NCBI RefSeq assembly: GCF_035285525.1 | Contig: NZ_JAYKGW010000186.1 | Location: 23,963 to 47,962 of the forward strand | Length of the DNA: 24,000 nucleotides | Source: Okeania sp. | GTDB taxonomy: Bacteria; Cyanobacteriota; Cyanobacteriia; Cyanobacteriales; Microcoleaceae | Direction of reading: 5' to 3' | Part shown: one piece after another, positions 12,522-22,574 of the stretch | Layout of the letters: each line of letters begins with the position of its first letter | How positions within the stretch are numbered: position 1 is the stretch's first letter | The notes under the pieces: model-generated | Database searches by the model: none | Told to the model about the DNA's origin: nothing | Seen by the model: only the letters and a program-made list of their open reading frames with translations | Program-made: the position numbers and the translations under genes

Positions 12522-13817
12522 TTAATGAAGAAAAGATAAATCAATCTTGCCAAAATTTGTACTTAAAGCAACTTGTGTATTTTCTAATGCTTTCACCAGC
12601 CAAATTACTCCATCTCTGGTAGAGCTTTCATAATGATTAAATAGTATTGCAAATCTCTTTTCCAAGTATGGCTTAACTTTATGACAAACCAAAACTATTT
12701 TTAGAAGGAGACAAGTAGTTGCGATGGGACCTATATTCGACATTAGATTAAGAAATAAAAAATGCTGTGGTTTTTGAACGCTTTCGACAACTAAAAACCC
12801 TAATATTTGGTCACAGGTTCTCATCAGTAAAAAATCGTTAAATGGTTTATCATTATTATGAGGCATAGTATTTTTTAATTGTTTATATAATTTGTTTTTA
12901 AACTGATAACTAAAGCTCCTAGAATCTGCATTAAATGATGTACTCAAGTATTGATAAAAACTATCTTTAAAGCAACTATAGGACTGAATTTGTTTTGTAT
13001 AAGTTATGAAACTTTTAGCATAATCTTGGTAGTTATAACCATTTTCAACTTTGCCGACAAATTGTTTAATAGCTGATAAGAGTTCTCGATCGTTTAAAAG
13101 AGTAGGATTTTGAATTTTGTTGAGATTTTGACAACTAGATTGTGTCAACTCTGAAGTAGTTATTATCCCATGTCTAATTTGATAAGTCACATAGTGGGAT
13201 AAGTCTATTTCAAATTTTTTCTGCTCTTGTCGTTGGATTTTTCTAATAGCTTTTTGATGTTCATAGCTATTGTCTGAAGTAATTAAACAATGTTGGTATA
13301 GGTAAGGATAACGTGGAATTAGAGTTCTTAAAGGTTGAGCTAAAGCACTATGACTATTTCTATAACTTCTTCCTTCTTGGTTAATTACTTCTGCTAAACG
13401 TTTTAAAGCTAAATATTGCTGACTTGTTGTGAATGTTTGAACTAGGTCAAATAGTTTTTTACTATTCCGCGAACCGTAGTAAGGTGGCATTGATTTATTA
13501 CTGATTTTATCAAATAATTTAATTAAGTCTAGCAATACATCTTTTTTATAGATATAGCGCTCTCTATTAATAACAATATAACAACAGCGATTTAGAATGA
13601 AATTAAATTCTTCTTGATTTTGTAATAATGGGATAATTTTTATTAGTGCTTTAGCTACTTTTTGATCGGGATATCCAGAACTATTAAGAAATAAAATCCT
13701 AAATCTTTCAATTATTTCTTCTGATGATTCTATATCTATTAACTGAAGAAAATGGTTATAGATATATTGCTCATAATGAGATTTATTTTGTTTATATTCA
13801 TCTAGAGAGTTTTTCAT
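12522..13817 (-). CDS. Conserved hypothetical protein of unknown function
   Basis: 431-aa ORF, co-directional with and upstream of the GTPase gene. No domain recognised. Contains LIPRYPYLYQHCL and a hydrophobic C-terminal third. Confidence 0.65.
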   Translation of the reverse strand: MKNSLDEYKQNKSHYEQYIYNHFLQLIDIESSEEIIERFRILFLNSSGYPDQKVAKALIKIIPLLQNQEEFNFILNRCCYIVINRERYIYKKDVLLDLIKLFDKISNKSMPPYYGSRNSKKLFDLVQTFTTSQQYLALKRLAEVINQEGRSYRNSHSALAQPLRTLIPRYPYLYQHCLITSDNSYEHQKAIRKIQRQEQKKFEIDLSHYVTYQIRHGIITTSELTQSSCQNLNKIQNPTLLNDRELLSAIKQFVGKVENGYNYQDYAKSFITYTKQIQSYSCFKDSFYQYLSTSFNADSRSFSYQFKNKLYKQLKNTMPHNNDKPFNDFLLMRTCDQILGFLVVESVQKPQHFLFLNLMSNIGPIATTCLLLKIVLVCHKVKPYLEKRFAILFNHYESSTRDGVIWLVKALENTQVALSTNFGKIDLSFLH

Positions 13818-14610
13818 TTTATAGATGTTGGAATTTAGTTTTTTATCAGCATTTAGCTATAGCAATCCCATTTAAGTCGTTTACAAAATTTCGTTGCTTT
13901 TAGGATAGGCAAAAGGAAATGGTGAAAAATGAATAGGCGGGAATTTTAGTTTTTTTTATTTACTTTTTAATTGGTTACATAAGTATTTCCTGCTGAATCC
14001 TTACGTTACAACTTATTTAGGATTGCTATATTAACCGTCAGTTCTCAAAAATAAAACTTTGCTTTTGTAGTAAGATTTAAGTTAATCTTAATAGCAGCTC
14101 AAGTAATAGTTGATTACTTAGGTTTTGTTGTATTCCATTACCCTGATATATAGGAAAAATAACTAATATTGAGTTTTGAGATAGCTGTCTGTAGGATTTC
14201 TTACAAACAGGGCTATTTTACTTACTAAAGATAGTTTCTTCCTCAAAAGAAATTATATCGCAATTTTATTTCAAGTGGTTAATCAAAGTTTTCTAAGTTT
14301 TCCTGACTTATGGAAACTAGCACCTGTTCCCTACTTGCCACCAGCACCAAAAATATTCTCTAGAACTTTTGATTTCGGTGTATGTCATAGCGTGCCAAAA
14401 TACTTTTTTTCTTATCCCCTATTCCCTCCATACCTATTCCCTGTCTTGGTCGATTAGATATGGTCAGGAAACTTGACCATCTTTCGACCGCTTTTCCCTA
14501 AAAGCGATAAATTTTTGGCTTTCTGTAAAATTGAGATTTACCCTTTAATTTTGCCTTTAAACCCCAAAAAATAATTTGAGTTCAACAATAACAAATATTC
14601 TTATATAATT

Positions 14611-16053
14611 ATGACAAATATTTCAGGAGAACTACCAATAACTATGGTTTGTCATATTACTTTACTCCAACTGACTAAAATATTAACTTCTACAACACTT
14701 ACAGGTTTTGATGTTCCAGAAAAAACATTAATTACAGGTATAAATACAGATACTCGTAGTTTAAAATCTGGTGAAGGATTTTTAGCATTACAGGGTGAAA
14801 ACTTTGATGGTCATAATTTTGTTAAGCAAGCAATCGAAAAGGAAGCTGGTTGTATAATTGTTGAACAAGAATATATCTTAAATAATGAAGTTAAAGAACT
14901 ATCAAAGAATATACCTATATTACAAGTAGAAAATACTTTAAAAGCTTATCAAAAAATTGCTCGTTGGTGGCGAGATAGATTTGATATTCCTGTAATTTCT
15001 ATCACAGGTTCTGTAGGTAAAACTACTACTAAGGAATTAATCGCTGCAGTTTTGGGAACTCAAGGTCAAGTTATCAAAACTGAAGCTAATTATAATAATG
15101 AAATAGGTGTACCTAAAACTCTATTACGACTTTCTGATAATGATAATTATGCGGTGATAGAAATGGCAATGCGAGGACCTGAAGAAATTGCAGAATTAAC
15201 AAATATTGCTAATCCAACTATTGGTTTAATTACAAATGTTGGTACTGCTCATATTGGTCGTTTAGGTTCTGTGGAAGCGATCGCTAAAGCTAAGTGTGAG
15301 TTATTAAGAGAAATGTCTCAGGATAGTATTGCGATTCTAAATTATGATAATAAAAGGTTGATAGAAACTGCTGCTAAATTTTGGTCTGGAGAAACTTTTA
15401 CTTATGGTTTAGAAGGTGGAGATTTACAAGGAAAATTAATTGATTCTCAAACTATAAATGTTGATGGTTTAGATTTACCTTTACCTTTATCTGGCAGTCA
15501 TAATGCTTCTAATTATTTAGCAGCATTAGCAGTGTTGAAAGTTTTGCATGGAAAAAATATTTCGACAAAAAATTTATTTGAACCTTTGACTAATAATTTC
15601 TCAGTTCAGTTACCAGGAAGTAGGGCAAAAAAATATGATTTAGACAATGATATTGTGATTTTAGATGAAAGTTATAATGCTGGATTAGAATCAATGATAG
15701 CTGCTTTAAATTTATTAGCTGAAACTCCAGGTAAACGTCATATTGCTGTTTTGGGAACTATGAAAGAATTAGGAGATCAATCAGTTTTATTCCATGAACA
15801 AGTTGGCAATGTTGTGAGAAATTTAAAGATAGATGGTTTATTTATTTTAGCTGATTTTGAAGAAGGAAAAGCAATCGTTAAAGGTGCTGCTGGTTTAAAA
15901 TTTATAGAAGTAGAAAATATTGCTGCTGATGATGCTCACCAGAATTTAGCTAGACATTTACAAGAGTTTTTAAGAGCAGGCGATCGAGTTCTTTTTAAAG
16001 CTTCTAATGCTGTAGGGTTAAATAAAGTAGTCGAACTTTTAATTAATAAGTAA
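14611..16053 (+). CDS. murF: UDP-N-acetylmuramoyl-tripeptide--D-alanyl-D-alanine ligase
   Basis: 480-aa ORF with the Mur-ligase P-loop ITGSVGKTTTKE, plus NYNNEIGVP, EMAMRG, DESYNA and GTMKELG. An alternative in-frame start is ATG 14644. Confidence 0.9.
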   Translation: MTNISGELPITMVCHITLLQLTKILTSTTLTGFDVPEKTLITGINTDTRSLKSGEGFLALQGENFDGHNFVKQAIEKEAGCIIVEQEYILNNEVKELSKNIPILQVENTLKAYQKIARWWRDRFDIPVISITGSVGKTTTKELIAAVLGTQGQVIKTEANYNNEIGVPKTLLRLSDNDNYAVIEMAMRGPEEIAELTNIANPTIGLITNVGTAHIGRLGSVEAIAKAKCELLREMSQDSIAILNYDNKRLIETAAKFWSGETFTYGLEGGDLQGKLIDSQTINVDGLDLPLPLSGSHNASNYLAALAVLKVLHGKNISTKNLFEPLTNNFSVQLPGSRAKKYDLDNDIVILDESYNAGLESMIAALNLLAETPGKRHIAVLGTMKELGDQSVLFHEQVGNVVRNLKIDGLFILADFEEGKAIVKGAAGLKFIEVENIAADDAHQNLARHLQEFLRAGDRVLFKASNAVGLNKVVELLINK

Positions 16054-16068
16054 TATATTTTCTGTAGC

Positions 16069-16085
16069 ACAGGCATCTTGCCTGT
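16069..16085. terminator. Short hairpin between convergent murF and the 16134-17323 pseudogene
   Basis: ACAGGCA-TCT-TGCCTGT, a 7-bp stem. It belongs to the ACAGGCAAGATGCCTGT-type repeat class also seen at 20870-20914. Terminator function is inferred from position only. Confidence 0.35.
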
Positions 16086-16133
16086 CATGGGTGTATCTTA
16101 TCTGAAACACCCTGCAACATTAAATCCATTAAA

Positions 16134-17323
16134 TCATATAAGAAAAAACATCATCAAAAATAACACTTGTATCACCAAAATTATTGTGTAAGTTCGCTTA
16201 AATGCACCGTCATATTTTTTATAATTTATATATGACATTGCAAGTCCAGTACCATAAGAACCTCCAATTATCGTATAAAAACGTAAAATATATTCTGGAA
16301 TATCAAAAATAGAATAGTTATCGAAATAACACATAACAAAAGTTACCGTATTAATATAAAAATAATAGATAAATATTGCCATGTGAAGCATAAAAAAACA
16401 TCAGCAGTTTTTTCTTGGTAAAAAGAACTGTAAATACCTGTAAAACAACACATCATCAAAATTAGAGGTATATGTGTAACTATAGCCCAAAAAAATCTGC
16501 TATTTCTTGTGTTTTTATTTTGCCCTAGAATATAAAAAAATCTGATTATGCTAACAAAAATTATTCCAATTATAATCCTTTGAGAAAATATTTGAGGGCT
16601 ATCCCCCAACAAATCAAGAATTGAAGGATTTCTTGAATTTAGTGGTGTTAATAATAGAAATGGCACAAAATAAGATATTACACATAAAAGTACTGTTCCG
16701 ATAACTGCTTTTATTAGATTTATTGCTGAGTAGAAGAAAAAATAAACCAGGTATAATGAGAAAATAATTAATGAAATAAAGAACAAATTTTCTGAAAGAC
16801 TTATAATGCTACTGGGAAATGTAGCTACGATGTCAGGAGATTGCATAAATACATAAATAAACCCTGTTAGAATATAAACAAATAAAATGATGAAAAAAAG
16901 CTTTTACTTGCCAAGTTATCGTTAACGTTATTCTTTCCCAAATTTCCCCTATCGTCAGGTTTCTTGAAGATATTTTTCTATCTTCTGCTATTTTATTTAA
17001 TCTATTTATTCTTTCTTGTTCTCGCCTTTTTTTCTTGTTCTCGCTTTTGCTCTTGCCTTTTTTGTTCTCGCTTTTCTTCTTGCTTTTCTTCATCTTTTTT
17101 AATTTCAGCTTCTTTTCTGTGAATTTTTAAATCAACCTGATGAAGTCGTCCTTTCCAATGGTTTATTTCTTGCTCTATTTCATAATTTTTTTCAGGAGAA
17201 TTTTCATTAATAGCAAATGGTGGATTTCTTTTACATTCTAAATGCCATATATCATTTTCTATTTGTTTTTTTTTCAGAAATAAGTGAAGAAAACTCAGAT
17301 TCTAATTTTTGCAAGTTATTCAT
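16134..17323 (-). pseudogene. Single ~397-codon gene (K/E-rich coiled-coil N-terminus, multi-TM core, DUF1294-like C-terminus) broken by four homopolymer frameshifts
   Basis: Manual translation links ATG 17323 (MNNLQKLESEFSSLISEKK) to KQIENDIWHLECKRNPPF...EQKREQEKK, then the three track ORFs (16833-17093, 16343-16846, 16134-16391). Each join needs a 1-nt change inside a run: T9 at 17266-17274, T7 at 17027-17033, A7 at 16893-16899 and A7 at 16392-16398. The C-terminus FDIPEYILRFYTIIGGSYGTGLAMSYINYKKYDGAFK resembles the DUF1294 core (RIPE..L..L...GG..G...GM....HKT.K..F). Confidence 0.7.
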
Positions 17324-17547
17324 TTTGGTTTTCGTATTTTGCGTGCGACAAATATATAATATTTACGAGCTATTATTTTAATGTTTAAATATTTATGGTT
17401 GAATGGAATTTAACAAATACTTTACTATTTTAGTACCAGTTTAATAGCAAATTGCTAAGGCGATCGCTCATACCTTACTAAAAACTATGGAACTTTATTG
17501 ATAACTTATAAATAATAATTAATTTTATTTTTGATTTTGGGAAAAGT

Positions 17548-17971
17548 CTAATCTAAAGCAGGATGCCAAACAACATATACCCAAGGTTTTCTAGCAGCAA
17601 CTATAACTAGATTATTAGTTCTTAAAGCTGTAACTCTAGCTCTGGAAACAGCAGTTATACCTTCATTTTTTTCCATCAGAACTCCATTTAAAATGATGCG
17701 ACCATTCTTGTTGACGTGGATTAAATAAAGATACTTTTTCCCCAGTCAAAGGATCGATACATTCAATCGTATTACCTTTAAATTCATTGCAGCTTTGACA
17801 AGCTAAACAAACATTTTCAAAGTTGGTTTCTCCACCTTTTGAAAGAGGATAAATATGGTCGTATGTCATACGAATACCACTATTTATTTCACTGGTTAAA
17901 CAATAACAGCAAGAGTGGCGATCGCTTTCTGCTATCTGAAGTCGTAGAGTTTGAGAAATGTAAGAAGACAT
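17548..17971 (-). pseudogene. HNH endonuclease, frameshifted in an A7 run
   Basis: The track ORF 17663-17971 carries the HNH core (CCYC...YDHIYPLSKGGETNFENVCLACQSCNEFKG) and ends ...WSSDGKK*. Removing one A from the run at 17666-17672 continues it as DGKNEGITAVSRARVTALRTNNLVIVAARKPWVYVVWHPALD* (stop 17548-17550). That matches the usual C-terminal extension of this cyanobacterial HNH family (DGT.I.G.T..GRAT...L..N......R..W...GWHP). Confidence 0.75.
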
Positions 17972-18003
17972 AATTCTTGATTTTTCGTTAATTAATTAAG
18001 ACG

Positions 18004-18399
18004 CTAAACTTTATATCTCCGCCAGTGAAGTAAAGCTACTGCCTGGGCTTTTTTTTAAAATAAATAAATCTGCTTCCTGTCTCATTTTCTTAATTCTAAT
18101 TGTTCATTTTATGTTAATCATCTACTATAATTAGCCTCAAGTAAACTATTATATTTTTTTCATTTATACGTCTGTTTTTGAATGTAAATAATCCGCCATA
18201 AACTATCATCATCTAGTCTATATAATCCAGCAATATCTACTAAAAATTACTCTGCAATATCCTCATTAATAGTAGTATTTTCTACTTTAAAAGTAGGAAT
18301 TACTATATCTTCCACAGAAGATTTCATTCCTATGGCAGTGTTAACTAAACGTTGATAAATTGCTTCTGGAATTTCTAAAGTAACTGTTTGTGTTTGCAT
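18004..18399 (-). pseudogene. Antitoxin-like small protein gene with six in-frame stop codons and no frameshift
   Basis: A single frame from ATG 18399 reads MQTQTVTLEIPEAIYQRLVNTAIGMKSSVEDIVIPTFKVENTTINEDIAE*FLVDIAGLYRLDDDSLWRIIYIQKQTYK*KKYNSLLEANYSR*LT*NEQLELRK*DRKQIYLF*KKAQAVALLHWRRYKV*. Internal stops: 18247-18249 TAA, 18160-18162 TGA, 18118-18120 TGA, 18109-18111 TAA, 18082-18084 TGA, 18055-18057 TAA. It resembles a widespread cyanobacterial family (MQT.TVTLE.PE..Y.RL...A.....S.E..., L..LDDD.LW.IA, E...EL..L, KA.AAALLRWRG); this is from memory. Confidence 0.65.
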
Positions 18400-18512
18400 A
18401 TTTTTTAGTCAGAAATTATCTTTTTTATTAACTAATGGTACAATATTAAATCTGATAATATTAATCCAGTAAAATTTGTAGTAGACTGTTTCATCTAAAA
18501 CTGTGCATTAGA

Positions 18513-18617
18513 TTGTCTCCCTTGTCTCCCTTGTCTTGCTTCTTGCTTCTTGCTTCTTCCTTCTATCATCGGCAATTTTATTCTCCTTGTTCCCTGTTCC
18601 CTGTTCCCTGTTCCCTG
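18513..18617. repeat. Short tandem repeats (STRR-like): TTGTCTCCC x2, TTGCTTC x3, CCCTGTT x4
   Basis: Read directly: TTGTCTCCCTTGTCTCCCTTGTCTTGCTTCTTGCTTCTTGCTTCTTCC (18513-18563) and CCTTGTTCCCTGTTCCCTGTTCCCTGTTCCCTG (18585-18617). These make up the 5' part of track ORF 18550-19338. Confidence 0.85.
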
Positions 18618-18651
18618 CGCGCAGCGCTATAATACAAAAAAAACTAATTTA

Positions 18652-19338
18652 ATGATGAGAGAAACTTCACTTAATATTATTGCCATTGGTATTTTTGTTC
18701 TGACCATGTTTAGTCTACTTGGACCAATGTTTAATGTATCTCCAGTAATACCAGCGATCGCTACTTTTTCTATCCTGGTATTAGCAACTATAGATGTTTT
18801 GGGATGGCAAGGACAGGGAGGTACAATTATTGTAGATTTAGTAGAAGGAACATCTTCAGAAAGACGGGAGCGGATCGTTCGTCACGAAGCAGGACATTTT
18901 TTAGTAGCTTATTTGTTAGAAATTCCTATTAGTGGTTATGCTTTGAGTGCATGGGAAGCATTTCGCCAAGGACAGTCAGCTCAAGGGGGAGTTAGGTTCG
19001 AGGACGAAAAGTTAGCTGCTCAATTAAATAAAGGTATGATTTCCGAGGAACTCTTGAACAAATATTTTACTGTCTGGATGGCAGGTATGGCAGCAGAAGA
19101 TTTTGTTTATGGTAACTCTCAAGGTGGAGCAGAAGATAGAACTAAAATTACAGCAGTTTTGACACAATTAAAACGTCCTGGACAATCTAAAATTAAGCAA
19201 AGTTGGGCATCTGCCCAAGCTCGTACTTTACTAGAAAATAATCATTCTGCTTATGAAGCTTTAGTGAAAGCAATGACAGAAAGAGCGTCTGTTTCTGATT
19301 GCTATCAAGTTATTCAGAATACAGGGAGTGAAGAGTAG
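18652..19338 (+). CDS. Membrane protein with FtsH-like peptidase M41 domain, lacking the AAA module (HExxH present)
   Basis: The preferred start is ATG 18652 (MMRETSLNIIAIG...) because 18550-18650 is tandem-repeat DNA. There are two N-terminal hydrophobic helices, then RHEAGHFLVAYLL (HExxH), WMAGMAAEDFVYG and GGAEDR. Confidence 0.7.
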   Translation: MMRETSLNIIAIGIFVLTMFSLLGPMFNVSPVIPAIATFSILVLATIDVLGWQGQGGTIIVDLVEGTSSERRERIVRHEAGHFLVAYLLEIPISGYALSAWEAFRQGQSAQGGVRFEDEKLAAQLNKGMISEELLNKYFTVWMAGMAAEDFVYGNSQGGAEDRTKITAVLTQLKRPGQSKIKQSWASAQARTLLENNHSAYEALVKAMTERASVSDCYQVIQNTGSEE

Positions 19339-19476
19339 AGAATAGGGGGGCAGAGAGAGGTGTGCTGCACATCTAACTAAAAATGTAGGTTCGGTTGTAG
19401 CTTACTTCTGTCTGACAGTACGACACTGAAATAAAAAAACTTTTGTTGAGGCGATCGCTTCTTCAACTTCATCAAA

Positions 19477-19885
19477 TTAATCTTTTTCAGATGCTATTAT
19501 TTCTAATAAACAACTATAGAAAATTTGAAAACTTTTTGAGGTATTTTCCGTAGAGTTCATATATGGTGAAATATCTCTAGCAGCTCTCAATTTTTCTAAT
19601 CCTTCTTGATGATAACCTTTTCTTTGAAGCACCTCTTGTAAAGCTTCCCAAGTACCACCTTTAATGTTATCTGGGTCAAGATATTTAGATTTTTTATCGA
19701 GACTTTTAGGTACTTTAGGATAAGCTTTAGTCAAAGCTAGAATATCTCCAAAAAACCAAGCTTCTAATTCTTAAATCATAATTTTATTGATTAATTGATA
19801 TTTCTTTTTAGCTTTACTTTTTGCCAGAGTTTTTGTCATAAATCCAGCTTCTATAGCAATTTCTTCTAAGTCTTTCTTTAATTTT
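19477..19885 (-). pseudogene. C-terminal remnant of a DUF4276-like (OLD/Toprim-associated) gene with an in-frame TAA (tentative family)
   Basis: The frame of track ORF 19477-19734 stays open upstream: ...KKLKKDLEEIAIEAGFMTKTLAKSKAKKKYQLINKIMI*ELEAWFFGDILALTKAYPKVP.... The TAA is at 19771-19773. ELEAWFFGD and the C-terminal SKSFQIFYSCLLEI resemble the DUF4276 C-terminal pattern, recalled from memory. No N-terminus: the 5' side is replaced by a Uma2 5' fragment. Confidence 0.4.
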
Positions 19886-20064
19886 TTACACCTACTTCCA
19901 GCATTTTATAACACTCATCTACAGTAAATAATCGTCGCGATAATTGTACAGACACTATTAACTCCTTGAGAATAATTACATGAATTTGTTGAGTGTGAAA
20001 AATTATATTTATTCTAAATATTCTAATTAAAAATTTCTGTTAATCTCCCAATATTTCATCAACA
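19885..20064 (-). repeat. Duplicated fragments of the Uma2 gene: 5' end plus upstream region, and 3' end
   Basis: 19885-20017 parallels 20735-20867 at an exact 850-bp offset. The non-coding part (19957-20017 versus 20807-20867) differs at about one position, and the coding part is more diverged (VSVQLSRRLFTVDECYKMLEVGVKN* versus MVVQLSRKLFTVDQYNKILDAGVF...). 20030-20064 is identical over 35 bp to 20232-20266, the last 8 codons plus stop of Uma2. Confidence 0.85.
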
Positions 20065-20241
20065 AGCGTAGGCCATTGTTGTTCCCGTTAGGGTTGCGCA
20101 GCATGGAACCGAAACCCAACACAACACCAACAATAGTAAGCTTTTGTTGGGTTGAACGATATACAGGATTTTATTTGAAATTATGGTTACAAAATAGAAT
20201 AAATTTATATAGTATTTAGTAATTCATGTCGAAAATTTCTG

Positions 20242-20805
20242 TTAATCTCCCAATATTTCATCAACAGTAAAAGTCACATTAGGGAAAACTTGAATAGTCA
20301 TAGTTTCACCCTTTTTAAAAGTCTGCATATTCTCATAACCATTTCCTTTAGGTTGTCGATAAACTTCCAGACATTTTTCATTCAGATTTACCAACCAAAC
20401 TTCCACAATATTATTCTCAGCATATAAAGGAACTTTTACTTCTCTGTCATATTTAATTGTTGTATCTGACACCTCTATAAGGAGAAATACATTTTCTGGT
20501 TGAGGTTGTTGAGTCCGATAAAAATCTGGTCGTCGTTGCAGCAAACTTATATCTGGTTGTGGTTCAGAAGTATTATTCAATCTTACAGAATCTTGAATTC
20601 CCACAGTAACAGTCTGTGCTAAACGCAAAATGAAAAGTTCGGCAAGACATTTCACACAAGCTGAGTGATGAATACCCATAGGGGACATTTTGACAATTTC
20701 TCCTCTAATTAGTTCTACTCGTTCGTTTTCAGTAAATACTCCTGCATCCAGAATTTTATTATACTGATCTACAGTGAATAGTTTTCGTGATAATTGTACA
20801 ACCAT
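20242..20805 (-). CDS. Uma2-family (DUF820) putative restriction-endonuclease-like protein
   Basis: 187-aa ORF. Family-typical features: FTVDQY..I.DAG.F.....VELI.GEIV.MSP, EPQPDISL, LLIEVSD...KYDREVKVPLYAENNIVEVWLVNL. An AAGGAG SD lies 6 nt upstream of the ATG. Confidence 0.85.
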   Translation of the reverse strand: MVVQLSRKLFTVDQYNKILDAGVFTENERVELIRGEIVKMSPMGIHHSACVKCLAELFILRLAQTVTVGIQDSVRLNNTSEPQPDISLLQRRPDFYRTQQPQPENVFLLIEVSDTTIKYDREVKVPLYAENNIVEVWLVNLNEKCLEVYRQPKGNGYENMQTFKKGETMTIQVFPNVTFTVDEILGD

Positions 20806-20869
20806 TATTAACTCCTTGAGAATAATTACATGAATTTGTTGAGTGTGAAAATTTATATTTATTCTAATC

Positions 20870-20914
20870 GTAACACAGCCTAGAAGGCTGTAACAAGCAA
20901 GATGCTTGTGTTAC
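20870..20914. repeat. Compound hairpin element
   Basis: GTAACAC (20870-20876) pairs with GTGTTAC (20908-20914), enclosing CAGCCT-AGA-AGGCTG and ACAAGCA-AGA-TGCTTGT. Confidence 0.6.
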
Positions 20915-21020
20915 TATTAATAATGTAAAACTTAGTTTTTTTTTAAGTTGATAAAATTATTGTAAGTAGTTAGCTCTCATCTTTCTTCTAGGTGAATGCT
21001 GACAGCTAAATGCTTACAAA

Positions 21021-22574
21021 TTATTCAACATAATCTCCTCCTGAACCATATTTCCATTGTTCCATTAAACGACGATAAAAATATCTCTGTTCTTCTGACA
21101 TTTTTGCTATCAAATTTTCCATTTTTCCCCCTACAGGATATAACAAACTATAAACTCCTAAATTAACATAATGTTTCATCCAGTCTAATAAATTTCCTAC
21201 TCCAACTTGAGGGATAATTTTTATTACTAAACCTGGTTGTTTTAAGGAAGTAACAAATAAAGTTTTTGCCAAAGCAGGAAACTTTACGACATCTTGTAAA
21301 AAAGGTTTCAAAACAGGTTCACCTAACTGTTCCATTACCTGAAAAACACCTGCTAATAATTGATTAATTTGCTCTGATGCAACTTTTTGATTTACCCCTA
21401 TACTCATAGAACGTTGAAATAACCAAGTAACTGATACATTAGGTTGATAAGGTTGTAAAAGTGTCAAAGATTTTAATGATAAATTATCAGTTTGCAAAGC
21501 TTCATCAATACCCAAAGTTAGACGTGGCAAATGACGTACCATAGCTCCAAAACCGCCAAAACTCAGAGGTGACTGACTGCCACTACTATCGCCCACTGGC
21601 AAAATACGATTCCAAGGAGTTTGCAGAGGACTTTGACGATAACAAGGAAAGAATCCAAATAAAGCACGTTGGAATGTAAGTTGACTAAGTTCGACTTTTT
21701 GATATTCTGGTAATAAACGTAGATATTCTTCAAAGAAAAATTCTAAGGAAAATCTATCTGGATGAGCATCTAAATAAGTAAATAAATAAGTAGTGCGCCC
21801 GTCTCTGGCAGGAAATGCTTCCCAAAAATATTGACATTGATTTTCTATCGGAGTAAAGGAAGCAAAAATATCTCCCGTATCATTTTTCGGATATCCAGTC
21901 GCACAAGTACCAACTACTAAACAGACAGCATCAGGTTTTTTGCCTTTCCTTGCTTGTTGCACAATAGGAGAAGAATGCCCCATGGCATCCAGGAGTAGTC
22001 GAGTTTTGAACGATCGCCCATTGCTAGTCTGGATATTGACTCCATCTGGATGAATGGTTGCTGTTTGATAAGCTGTATTTTCAAATAGTTGACCTCCTAC
22101 TTCTAAAAATCGTTGTTTCAGAGTTTCCAATAAATAAACAGGATCGACTCCAATATTGAGAACGTCTTTTACCCAGATGTCAGGAGTATTGGGAAAACTG
22201 ATGCGAGCGGGGTTATATTCAGTAGCGATCGCTTTTTTTAGTTCTTCTGAAGAGAGGAGATTTAATTCTACAAATGTTTCTATTTCTTTGCGGGAAATAT
22301 TCCATTCTTGGATTCTACCTTTGAGAATGCCTCTTTCTAAAAGGGCAACGCGCCAACCTTTTTTTGCCAAAGTAGCACCAATTAAAATACCTAAAGTTCC
22401 TCCGCAAATTATTACATCCCAGTCAGAAGTTTCTAATAATTTAGATTCAGTTTTAACAGTAGTAGGAATAGGTATATTTTCGGCTCGAAGTTTTTGCCAA
22501 ATTTTATCGACTCGTCGTAGAGTTTCTAAAGGGTTTCCGGGAATTTGAGAAAGAATTTGTTCTGTTAAAGACAT
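21021..22574 (-). CDS. FAD-dependent oxidoreductase (lycopene-cyclase / geranylgeranyl-reductase-like superfamily; possibly CruA/CruP-like)
   Basis: 517-aa ORF with an N-terminal dinucleotide-binding fold, DVIICGGTLGILIGATLAKKGWRVALLERG. The length and a later GDSSG motif are consistent with flavoprotein cyclase or monooxygenase-like enzymes. The specific subfamily was not verified. Confidence 0.65.
   Translation of the reverse strand: MSLTEQILSQIPGNPLETLRRVDKIWQKLRAENIPIPTTVKTESKLLETSDWDVIICGGTLGILIGATLAKKGWRVALLERGILKGRIQEWNISRKEIETFVELNLLSSEELKKAIATEYNPARISFPNTPDIWVKDVLNIGVDPVYLLETLKQRFLEVGGQLFENTAYQTATIHPDGVNIQTSNGRSFKTRLLLDAMGHSSPIVQQARKGKKPDAVCLVVGTCATGYPKNDTGDIFASFTPIENQCQYFWEAFPARDGRTTYLFTYLDAHPDRFSLEFFFEEYLRLLPEYQKVELSQLTFQRALFGFFPCYRQSPLQTPWNRILPVGDSSGSQSPLSFGGFGAMVRHLPRLTLGIDEALQTDNLSLKSLTLLQPYQPNVSVTWLFQRSMSIGVNQKVASEQINQLLAGVFQVMEQLGEPVLKPFLQDVVKFPALAKTLFVTSLKQPGLVIKIIPQVGVGNLLDWMKHYVNLGVYSLLYPVGGKMENLIAKMSEEQRYFYRRLMEQWKYGSGGDYVE

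Follow-up and report, generated by a model that had tools for sequence, protein, structure and literature searches.

We have studied a small disrupted gene of 396 nt on the minus strand (18399..18004) of a 24 kb window, the window being the whole stretch of DNA that was analyzed. The source genome (G000) is a 6.5 Mb assembly in 260 contigs, with a completeness of 97% and a GC content of 35.1%; its genus is AT-rich as a whole. In this it resembles other members of the Trichodesmium/Okeania clade, whose genomes have low GC content, coding DNA of only ~60-64% and many gene remnants (PMC4143802, PMC9950141). Those reports treat non-coding DNA and the remnants of transposases only in general terms, and describe neither the gene family nor the pattern of decay that are the subject here. 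Open reading frames of at least 90 aa occupy about two-thirds of the window, and several pseudogenes lie within its 24 kb.

The small gene is situated in an island of 4.9 kb (~16.1-21.0 kb) that separates murF from a gene encoding a 517-aa FAD-oxidoreductase-like protein. These two flanking genes are adjacent or nearly so in relatives (nearly adjacent in genome G005), where the island is either missing or different. The segment 17426-20241 that carries the small gene is absent even from the closest relative (G008), which shares only 16100-17426. The neighboring murF and other genes are intact. Within the island (~16100-21020) there are at least four gene remnants, one of them a fragment of a DUF4276 gene, together with an intact Uma2-family gene and an ORF of 262 aa with weak similarity to peptidase M41.

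The minus-strand reading frame starts with an ATG at 18399, has 132 codons and ends with TAG at 18006..18004. As read in this single frame it is interrupted by TAA at codons 51, 97 and 115 and by TGA at codons 80, 94 and 106, so that the coordinates, the number of stops and the codon types given in the initial annotation are correct. The plus strand of the same interval is meaningless as coding sequence. The initial annotation further claimed that the translation still reads like that of a protein family, and this is borne out. When 41 related genomes were searched in six frames, seven intact homologues were recovered, all equal in length to the disrupted gene. The closest is a 135-aa ORF (L002) in a genome of the same genus, with 65% identity and E = 1.9e-44, followed by a second with 64% identity and E = 1.2e-43, and the motifs that had been quoted are conserved blocks of the family. 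Against a profile HMM of 25 intact members, the single-frame conceptual translation scores 139.6 bits.

Searching a large protein collection with an intact homologue yielded 51 relatives of ~134-137 aa, from Okeania, other filamentous cyanobacteria and Chloroflexota. All 51 are annotated as 'hypothetical' and none of them carries a Pfam domain; for the small protein itself, searches of Pfam, NCBIfam and PADLOC returned nothing significant. By its significant similarity over the full length, the locus belongs to a conserved, unnamed family of ~134 aa whose genes lie upstream of those for small HNH nucleases. It does not qualify as a functional member, given the four nonsense codons and four frameshifts described below. 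The invariant residues G40, P43, P49 and M114 are all replaced.

The initial annotation held that the 132 codons contain no indel. Gapped global alignment with the two closest intact homologues leads to a different conclusion, revealing four one-nucleotide indels in poly-A runs, in the order −1, +1, −1, +1 (all on the minus strand). The first is a one-base deletion at 18175..18179, where the homologues have A6 and the pseudogene A5, which shifts the frame. The frame is restored 19 nt later by a one-base insertion at 18154..18160, where AAACAA or A6 in the homologues corresponds to A7. The second pair begins with a one-base deletion at 18085..18088, the homologues having AGC-AAA-ATG or AGA-AAA-ATG and the pseudogene AGAAAATG, and ends 33 nt further on with a one-base insertion at 18049..18056 (A7 in L002, A8 here) that again restores the frame. 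Between the third and fourth indels the true frame reads KMRQEADLFILKK, where the family sequence is KMRREADLFMLKK.

Allowing gaps raises the alignment score from 372 to 478, and the identity to L002 from 312/396 to 336/394. With the frame restored, the translation reaches 162.2 bits with the family HMM, compared with 139.6 bits for the single frame, and the alternative frame matches profile positions 92-119 by itself. Indels occur in the small pseudogene at a frequency of ~1 per 8-10 substitutions. The gene has kept its length of 396 nt, masking the indels, because the four changes sum to zero. For four one-base indels of random sign the probability of a net change of zero is 6/16, and thus no special explanation is required for the kept length. 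Evidently the gene has not decayed purely by substitution, as had been proposed. The supposed contrast with an 'indel-only' pseudogene 1 kb away is lost as well, because slips in A/T runs are present in both.

What, then, were the ancestral codons at the stops? If the codons are tabulated without gaps beside those of the two nearest intact homologues, three of the six stops would require absurd changes. At codons 80 and 106 an ATG would have become TGA with all three positions changed, where a shift of one base gives a perfect match of the surrounding sequence. Codons 80, 106 and 115 of the single frame are therefore out-of-frame artefacts, readings of ATG-A and TTA-A. The TGA at codon 80 (18160-18162, minus strand) is the ATG-A of Met80, that at codon 106 (18082-18084, minus strand) corresponds to Met106, and the TAA at codon 115 (18055-18057, minus strand) is likewise out of frame.

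The ancestral frame contains four nonsense codons, at positions 51, 79, 94 and 97, all on the minus strand, all originating from the Glu codons GAA or GAG, and all involving a G>T transversion. Codon 51 (TAA, 18247..18249) is Glu in all intact homologues, and GAA in the five that were aligned as DNA. Codon 79 (TAA, 18164..18166), derived from GAA or GAG, was concealed by the single reading frame. Codon 94 (TGA, 18118..18120) required two changes from GAA, G>T and A>G, and codon 97 (TAA, 18109..18111) arose from GAG or GAA. Glu is present at all four positions in both of the closest intact homologues; across the wider set, position 97 is Glu in most homologues and position 94 varies among those more distant. 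The terminal TAG occupies the place of TAT, CAT or CGT, three or four codons ahead of the homologues' own stops. None of the stops arose by transition from CAA, CGA or TGG, the origin initially suggested for them.

That all four should come from Glu codons is to be expected, because of the share of one-step routes to stop that pass through G>T and the abundance of GAA. In the intact homologue, 18 of the 32 single GC>AT steps that lead to a stop are G>T (56%), and given this share the occurrence of four out of four has p ~0.1. Across 1,760 long ORFs from this genome, transversions make up 58% of such steps, and the usage of GAA is 55 per 1000 codons, compared with 36 for CAA, 13 for TGG and 7 for CGA.

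The substitutions were polarized using only those columns in which all five intact homologues agree. Thirty strictly polarized changes are private to the pseudogene, comprising eight G>T, four C>A, four C>T, five G>A and nine others. GC>AT changes exceed AT>GC by 21:3, and 22.5% of G/C sites are changed compared with 3.9% of A/T sites. The pseudogene has fallen to a GC content of 28.5%, its two nearest homologues (L002 and L003) having 35-38%. Transversions outnumber transitions 20:10, with 12/30 changes being G:C>T:A and 9/30 G:C>A:T. Per base of the coding strand the rates are 8/64 for G>T, 4/38 for C>A, 4/38 for C>T and 5/64 for G>A. Strand asymmetry, whether G>T is compared with C>A or C>T with G>A, is absent once base counts are considered. 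Of the GC>AT or deamination-type pressure that had been suggested, the AT-directed excess is clearly present; the deamination signature is not, in view of the preponderance of transversions and the lack of strand bias.

The changes fall at 10/95, 16/120 and 4/68 sites in codon positions 1, 2 and 3 respectively. They are spread over the codon positions, and there is therefore no sign of purifying selection. With its disruptions and no codon-position bias in the density of substitution, the small gene has the sequence characteristics that would be expected of a bacterial pseudogene under neutral decay.

The remnant of an HNH endonuclease gene (17548..17971; Pfam HNH, E = 2.7e-9) lies 32 nt downstream of the small pseudogene, also on the minus strand. 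Intact homologues of the HNH protein are 141 aa in length; here the deletion of 2 nt around 17660-17680 has split the gene into ORFs of 102 and 42 aa. An HNH gene is found directly downstream of the small gene in eight of nine informative loci (L002, L003, L006, L007, L008, L024, L025 and L026), in very different genomic contexts. Because this order is shared across such differing contexts, the pair is taken to be a mobile two-gene module. Both genes of the module are dead in this genome.

The two genes have not decayed evenly. At columns conserved in four homologues, 34/299 (11.4%) have changed in the small gene and 14/315 (4.4%) in the HNH gene (p = 0.0015). Within the HNH gene, 4/222 columns upstream of the frameshift show lineage-specific changes, compared with 10/93 downstream of it (p = 0.001), the downstream count including one cluster of three bases. 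It seems that the small gene and the HNH tail have been without selection for a similar time, and that the HNH core was conserved for longer; the 102-aa ORF containing this core may have retained selection after the tail and the partner were lost. Longer conservation of the core fits poorly with a strict toxin-antitoxin interpretation, except if the truncated nuclease does no harm. Gene conversion of the 5′ part of the HNH gene from a close paralogue was considered and rejected, the other HNH copies in this genome being at most 42% identical. At one of the eight loci, L025 on a JGI metagenome contig (1945-2563), the small gene is intact, but the HNH sequence is wholly divergent beyond codon ~50. 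The divergence has the look of an insertion or rearrangement, and the locus would represent an independent loss of the HNH gene.

The conclusion that emerges, and which we hold with high confidence, is that the locus is an ordinary and fairly old pseudogene, belonging to an accessory module of two genes (encoding a ~134-aa protein and a 141-aa HNH protein) and located in a variable island of this AT-rich genome. The alignments show the indels, the ancestral codons, the polarized spectrum, the absence of codon-position bias and the broken partner, and the following mechanism would account for them. Upon loss of selection the small gene would have gathered neutral mutations of the two usual kinds; we infer that the indels arose by slippage, and that everything else follows from the loss of selection. 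Replication slippage in homopolymers would have generated the four one-base A-run indels, their alternation of −1, +1, −1, +1 arising by chance. AT-biased point mutation would have converted four of the abundant Glu codons into TAA or TGA via G>T, and replaced many of the invariant residues.

One feature of the gene pair is not fully predicted by the genome-wide mutation bias alone. Taking the small gene and its HNH partner together, 17/44 lineage-specific changes are G:C>T:A, a figure to be read with the caveat that there are only 44 events, in a region selected for its stops, and that every comparator falls short of a clean neutral reference. The corresponding proportions are 32/366 in five intact neighboring genes and 92/813 in non-coding repeat families (i.e., 9-11%; Fisher p = 1e-6 to 7e-6); the unpolarized share of C<>A in the neighboring pseudogene, 31/138, is lower as well. 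On removal of the four stop-making changes the excess persists, at 13/40 (p = 5e-4).

These proportions raise the possibility of a locally elevated or lineage-elevated mutagenesis of G:C to T:A, of the type caused by oxidative damage (unrepaired 8-oxoG), possibly tied to the absence of a recognizable MutY in the genus. In a profile search with TIGR01084 none of the 12 genomes of the genus gave a match above the curated cut-off, the best scoring ~90 bits and being Nth-like in appearance, whereas a clear MutY was found in 13 of 29 genomes outside the genus. The fpg gene is present and intact in this genome (contig C201).

Comparators from the same lineage point the other way, being dominated by transitions. 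In the neighboring pseudogene (16134-17323), compared with its counterpart in G008, there are 79 C<>T differences and 31 C<>A among 138; this pseudogene was found at the DNA level in that one relative, and the comparison is therefore without polarity. Four-fold sites of the five intact genes show nine C>T and two C>A among only 13 changes at G/C sites. Patchy occurrence of mutY is moreover known among cyanobacteria of normal GC content (PMC5101192). With mutY so distributed, with the same-lineage comparators dominated by transitions, and with a sample that is small and selected for its stops, we treat the surplus of G:C>T:A as an unexplained minor excess rather than as evidence of special mutagenesis. 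Oxidative mutagenesis thus appears improbable as the explanation of the decay. It is equally doubtful that the transversion-rich decay of the pair is a real signature of unrepaired oxidized guanine in a clade in which no MutY was detected by the profile search; if it were, it would help to drive the low GC content of the clade, and conversion of Glu codons to stops would be the main route of gene death.

The repeat families used as a comparator are a weak neutral reference, because they are compositionally balanced (GC>AT approximately equal to AT>GC) and families with four members polarize poorly. They are dispersed and non-coding, each ~270-300 nt long and present in 18, 13 and 10 copies, with no open frame in any of the six frames. 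The balance of their private variants, unlike the pseudogene, suggests that they are constrained or mobile elements.

Could a protein still be made? Such expression might involve recoding, by read-through, a different genetic code or slippage on the A7 and A8 runs, and in some AT-rich bacteria frameshifts can be rescued by slippage on A-runs. It might alternatively take the form of a stand-alone N-terminal peptide of 50 aa, resembling a ribbon-helix-helix (RHH) domain (18250..18399), and the 50-codon ORF before the first stop does span the predicted strand-helix-helix part. However, TAA, TGA and TAG each terminate intact genes of this window, and stops occur in the frame as first read and in the restored frame alike. 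The first 50 codons show 12/36 lineage-specific changes, a density equal to that of the remainder; among them are H35P within helix 2 and four at positions that are invariant or nearly so (G40E, P42T, P43T and P49A). Continued production of a protein is therefore very unlikely.

The suggestion that the indels are errors of sequencing or assembly, the gene being less broken than it appears, is slightly less likely still. All four indels do fall in A-runs of 4-8 nt, which are classic sites of error, and the genome is a draft in 260 contigs. Yet an independent assembly, the Logan contig from run SRR19514071, agrees with the sequence at every position of 14663-18507 in the window (3,845 nt), murF and other neighbors are intact, and restoring the frame removes neither the four nonsense codons nor the replacement of many invariant residues.

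Least credible of all is that a deaminase-like hypermutation, offered as a more speculative option in the initial annotation, created stops by C>T or G>A from CAA, CGA and TGG, since apart from the 21:3 excess of GC>AT the data are the opposite of the expected signature, with no stop of that origin, all four real stops needing G>T, transversions in a 20:10 majority and per-base rates that lack strand coordination; as far as these data reach, the test named in the initial annotation refutes this option.

Ordinary decay of the two-gene module can be compared with what is seen elsewhere. In the AT-rich genomes of insect endosymbionts, Rickettsia and Mycobacterium leprae, pseudogenes decay by slippage in homopolymers together with the universal bias from GC to AT. 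The small pseudogene resembles neutral decay in AT-rich bacteria in its one-base indels in A/T runs, its excess of GC>AT, the absence of codon-position bias, the origin of its nonsense codons from the commonest one-step source codons and the breakage of the partner gene. It differs from the usual case in that the four indels cancel, with no larger deletion and the exact ancestral length retained, and in having G:C>T:A above the local comparators. The pattern is ordinary decay in a clade already known for its abundance of gene remnants.

A false lead is thereby removed, in that neither substitution-only decay nor deaminase-like hypermutation is found at 18004-18399. The locus illustrates a trap in reading sequence by itself: paired homopolymer slips cancel, a dead gene seems to have preserved its frame, and out-of-frame stops are miscounted as nonsense codons. 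It also provides a small but properly polarized sample of the neutral mutation pattern for a genome of the Trichodesmium/Okeania group.

What might the intact small protein do? AlphaFold2 applied to the family alignment gave a model with pLDDT 91 and pTM 0.80, comprising an extended N-terminal segment and six helices. In the predicted monomer residues 1-11 are extended, and are followed by helices at 12-25 and 29-39. These first three elements are compatible with an RHH layout, and the protein may consist of a putative RHH-like N-terminus and a helical C-terminal part. Two intact homologues give sub-threshold matches to FitA-like_RHH (PF22513), with 14.1-14.7 bits and E = 0.03-0.05 where the Pfam cut-off is 27; neither L002 nor the pseudogene gave a hit to this model. 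Against the PDB, a sequence profile search gave a best E of 0.15, and a Foldseek search with the whole model found nothing below E = 0.6.

The family shares with the type II RHH antitoxins (FitA-like, PF22513) the position of a small protein gene directly upstream of, or sometimes overlapping, a small nuclease gene, as well as the predicted N-terminal extended segment and two helices, albeit sub-threshold in Pfam. It differs from them in its scores of 14-15 bits against a cut-off of 27, and in a C-terminal part of four helices that has no known counterpart. The description 'antitoxin-like' given initially is thus a reasonable guess, membership of the RHH antitoxins lying below the Pfam gathering threshold. 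The HNH partner resembles the PtuB nucleases of Septu, matching the PADLOC models for PtuB over most of its length with E = 4e-10. In Septu, unlike here, the nuclease is accompanied by the PtuA ATPase; the neighbor of this HNH gene is the upstream gene for the 134-aa protein and no PtuA is adjacent, which excludes a Septu system. The 134-aa protein and its HNH nuclease form a conserved pair, an unnamed module in which the fold of the partner protein is confidently predicted but lacks a solved relative.

Some further observations concern the surroundings of the pseudogene. Short tandem repeats of heptamer type, with units CCCTTGT, TGCTTCT and GTTCCCT, occupy 18500-18620, just upstream of and within the 5′ end of the 262-aa ORF (18550-19338). 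Two DUF4276 fragments that are 89% identical, one at 19449-19893 in the window and the other on contig C186 about 1 kb past the end of the window, carry reciprocal lesions, each having TAA where GAA stands in the other (at codons 10 and 40 in the alignment), the same Glu-to-stop change as in the small pseudogene. Beyond the island, the gene at 21021-22574 of the window has a homologue in genome G009 (locus L020, contig C223); adjoining the full gene there, at 13266-13991, are three extra tandem partial copies of its 3′ end, each ~230 nt long and 80-83% identical.
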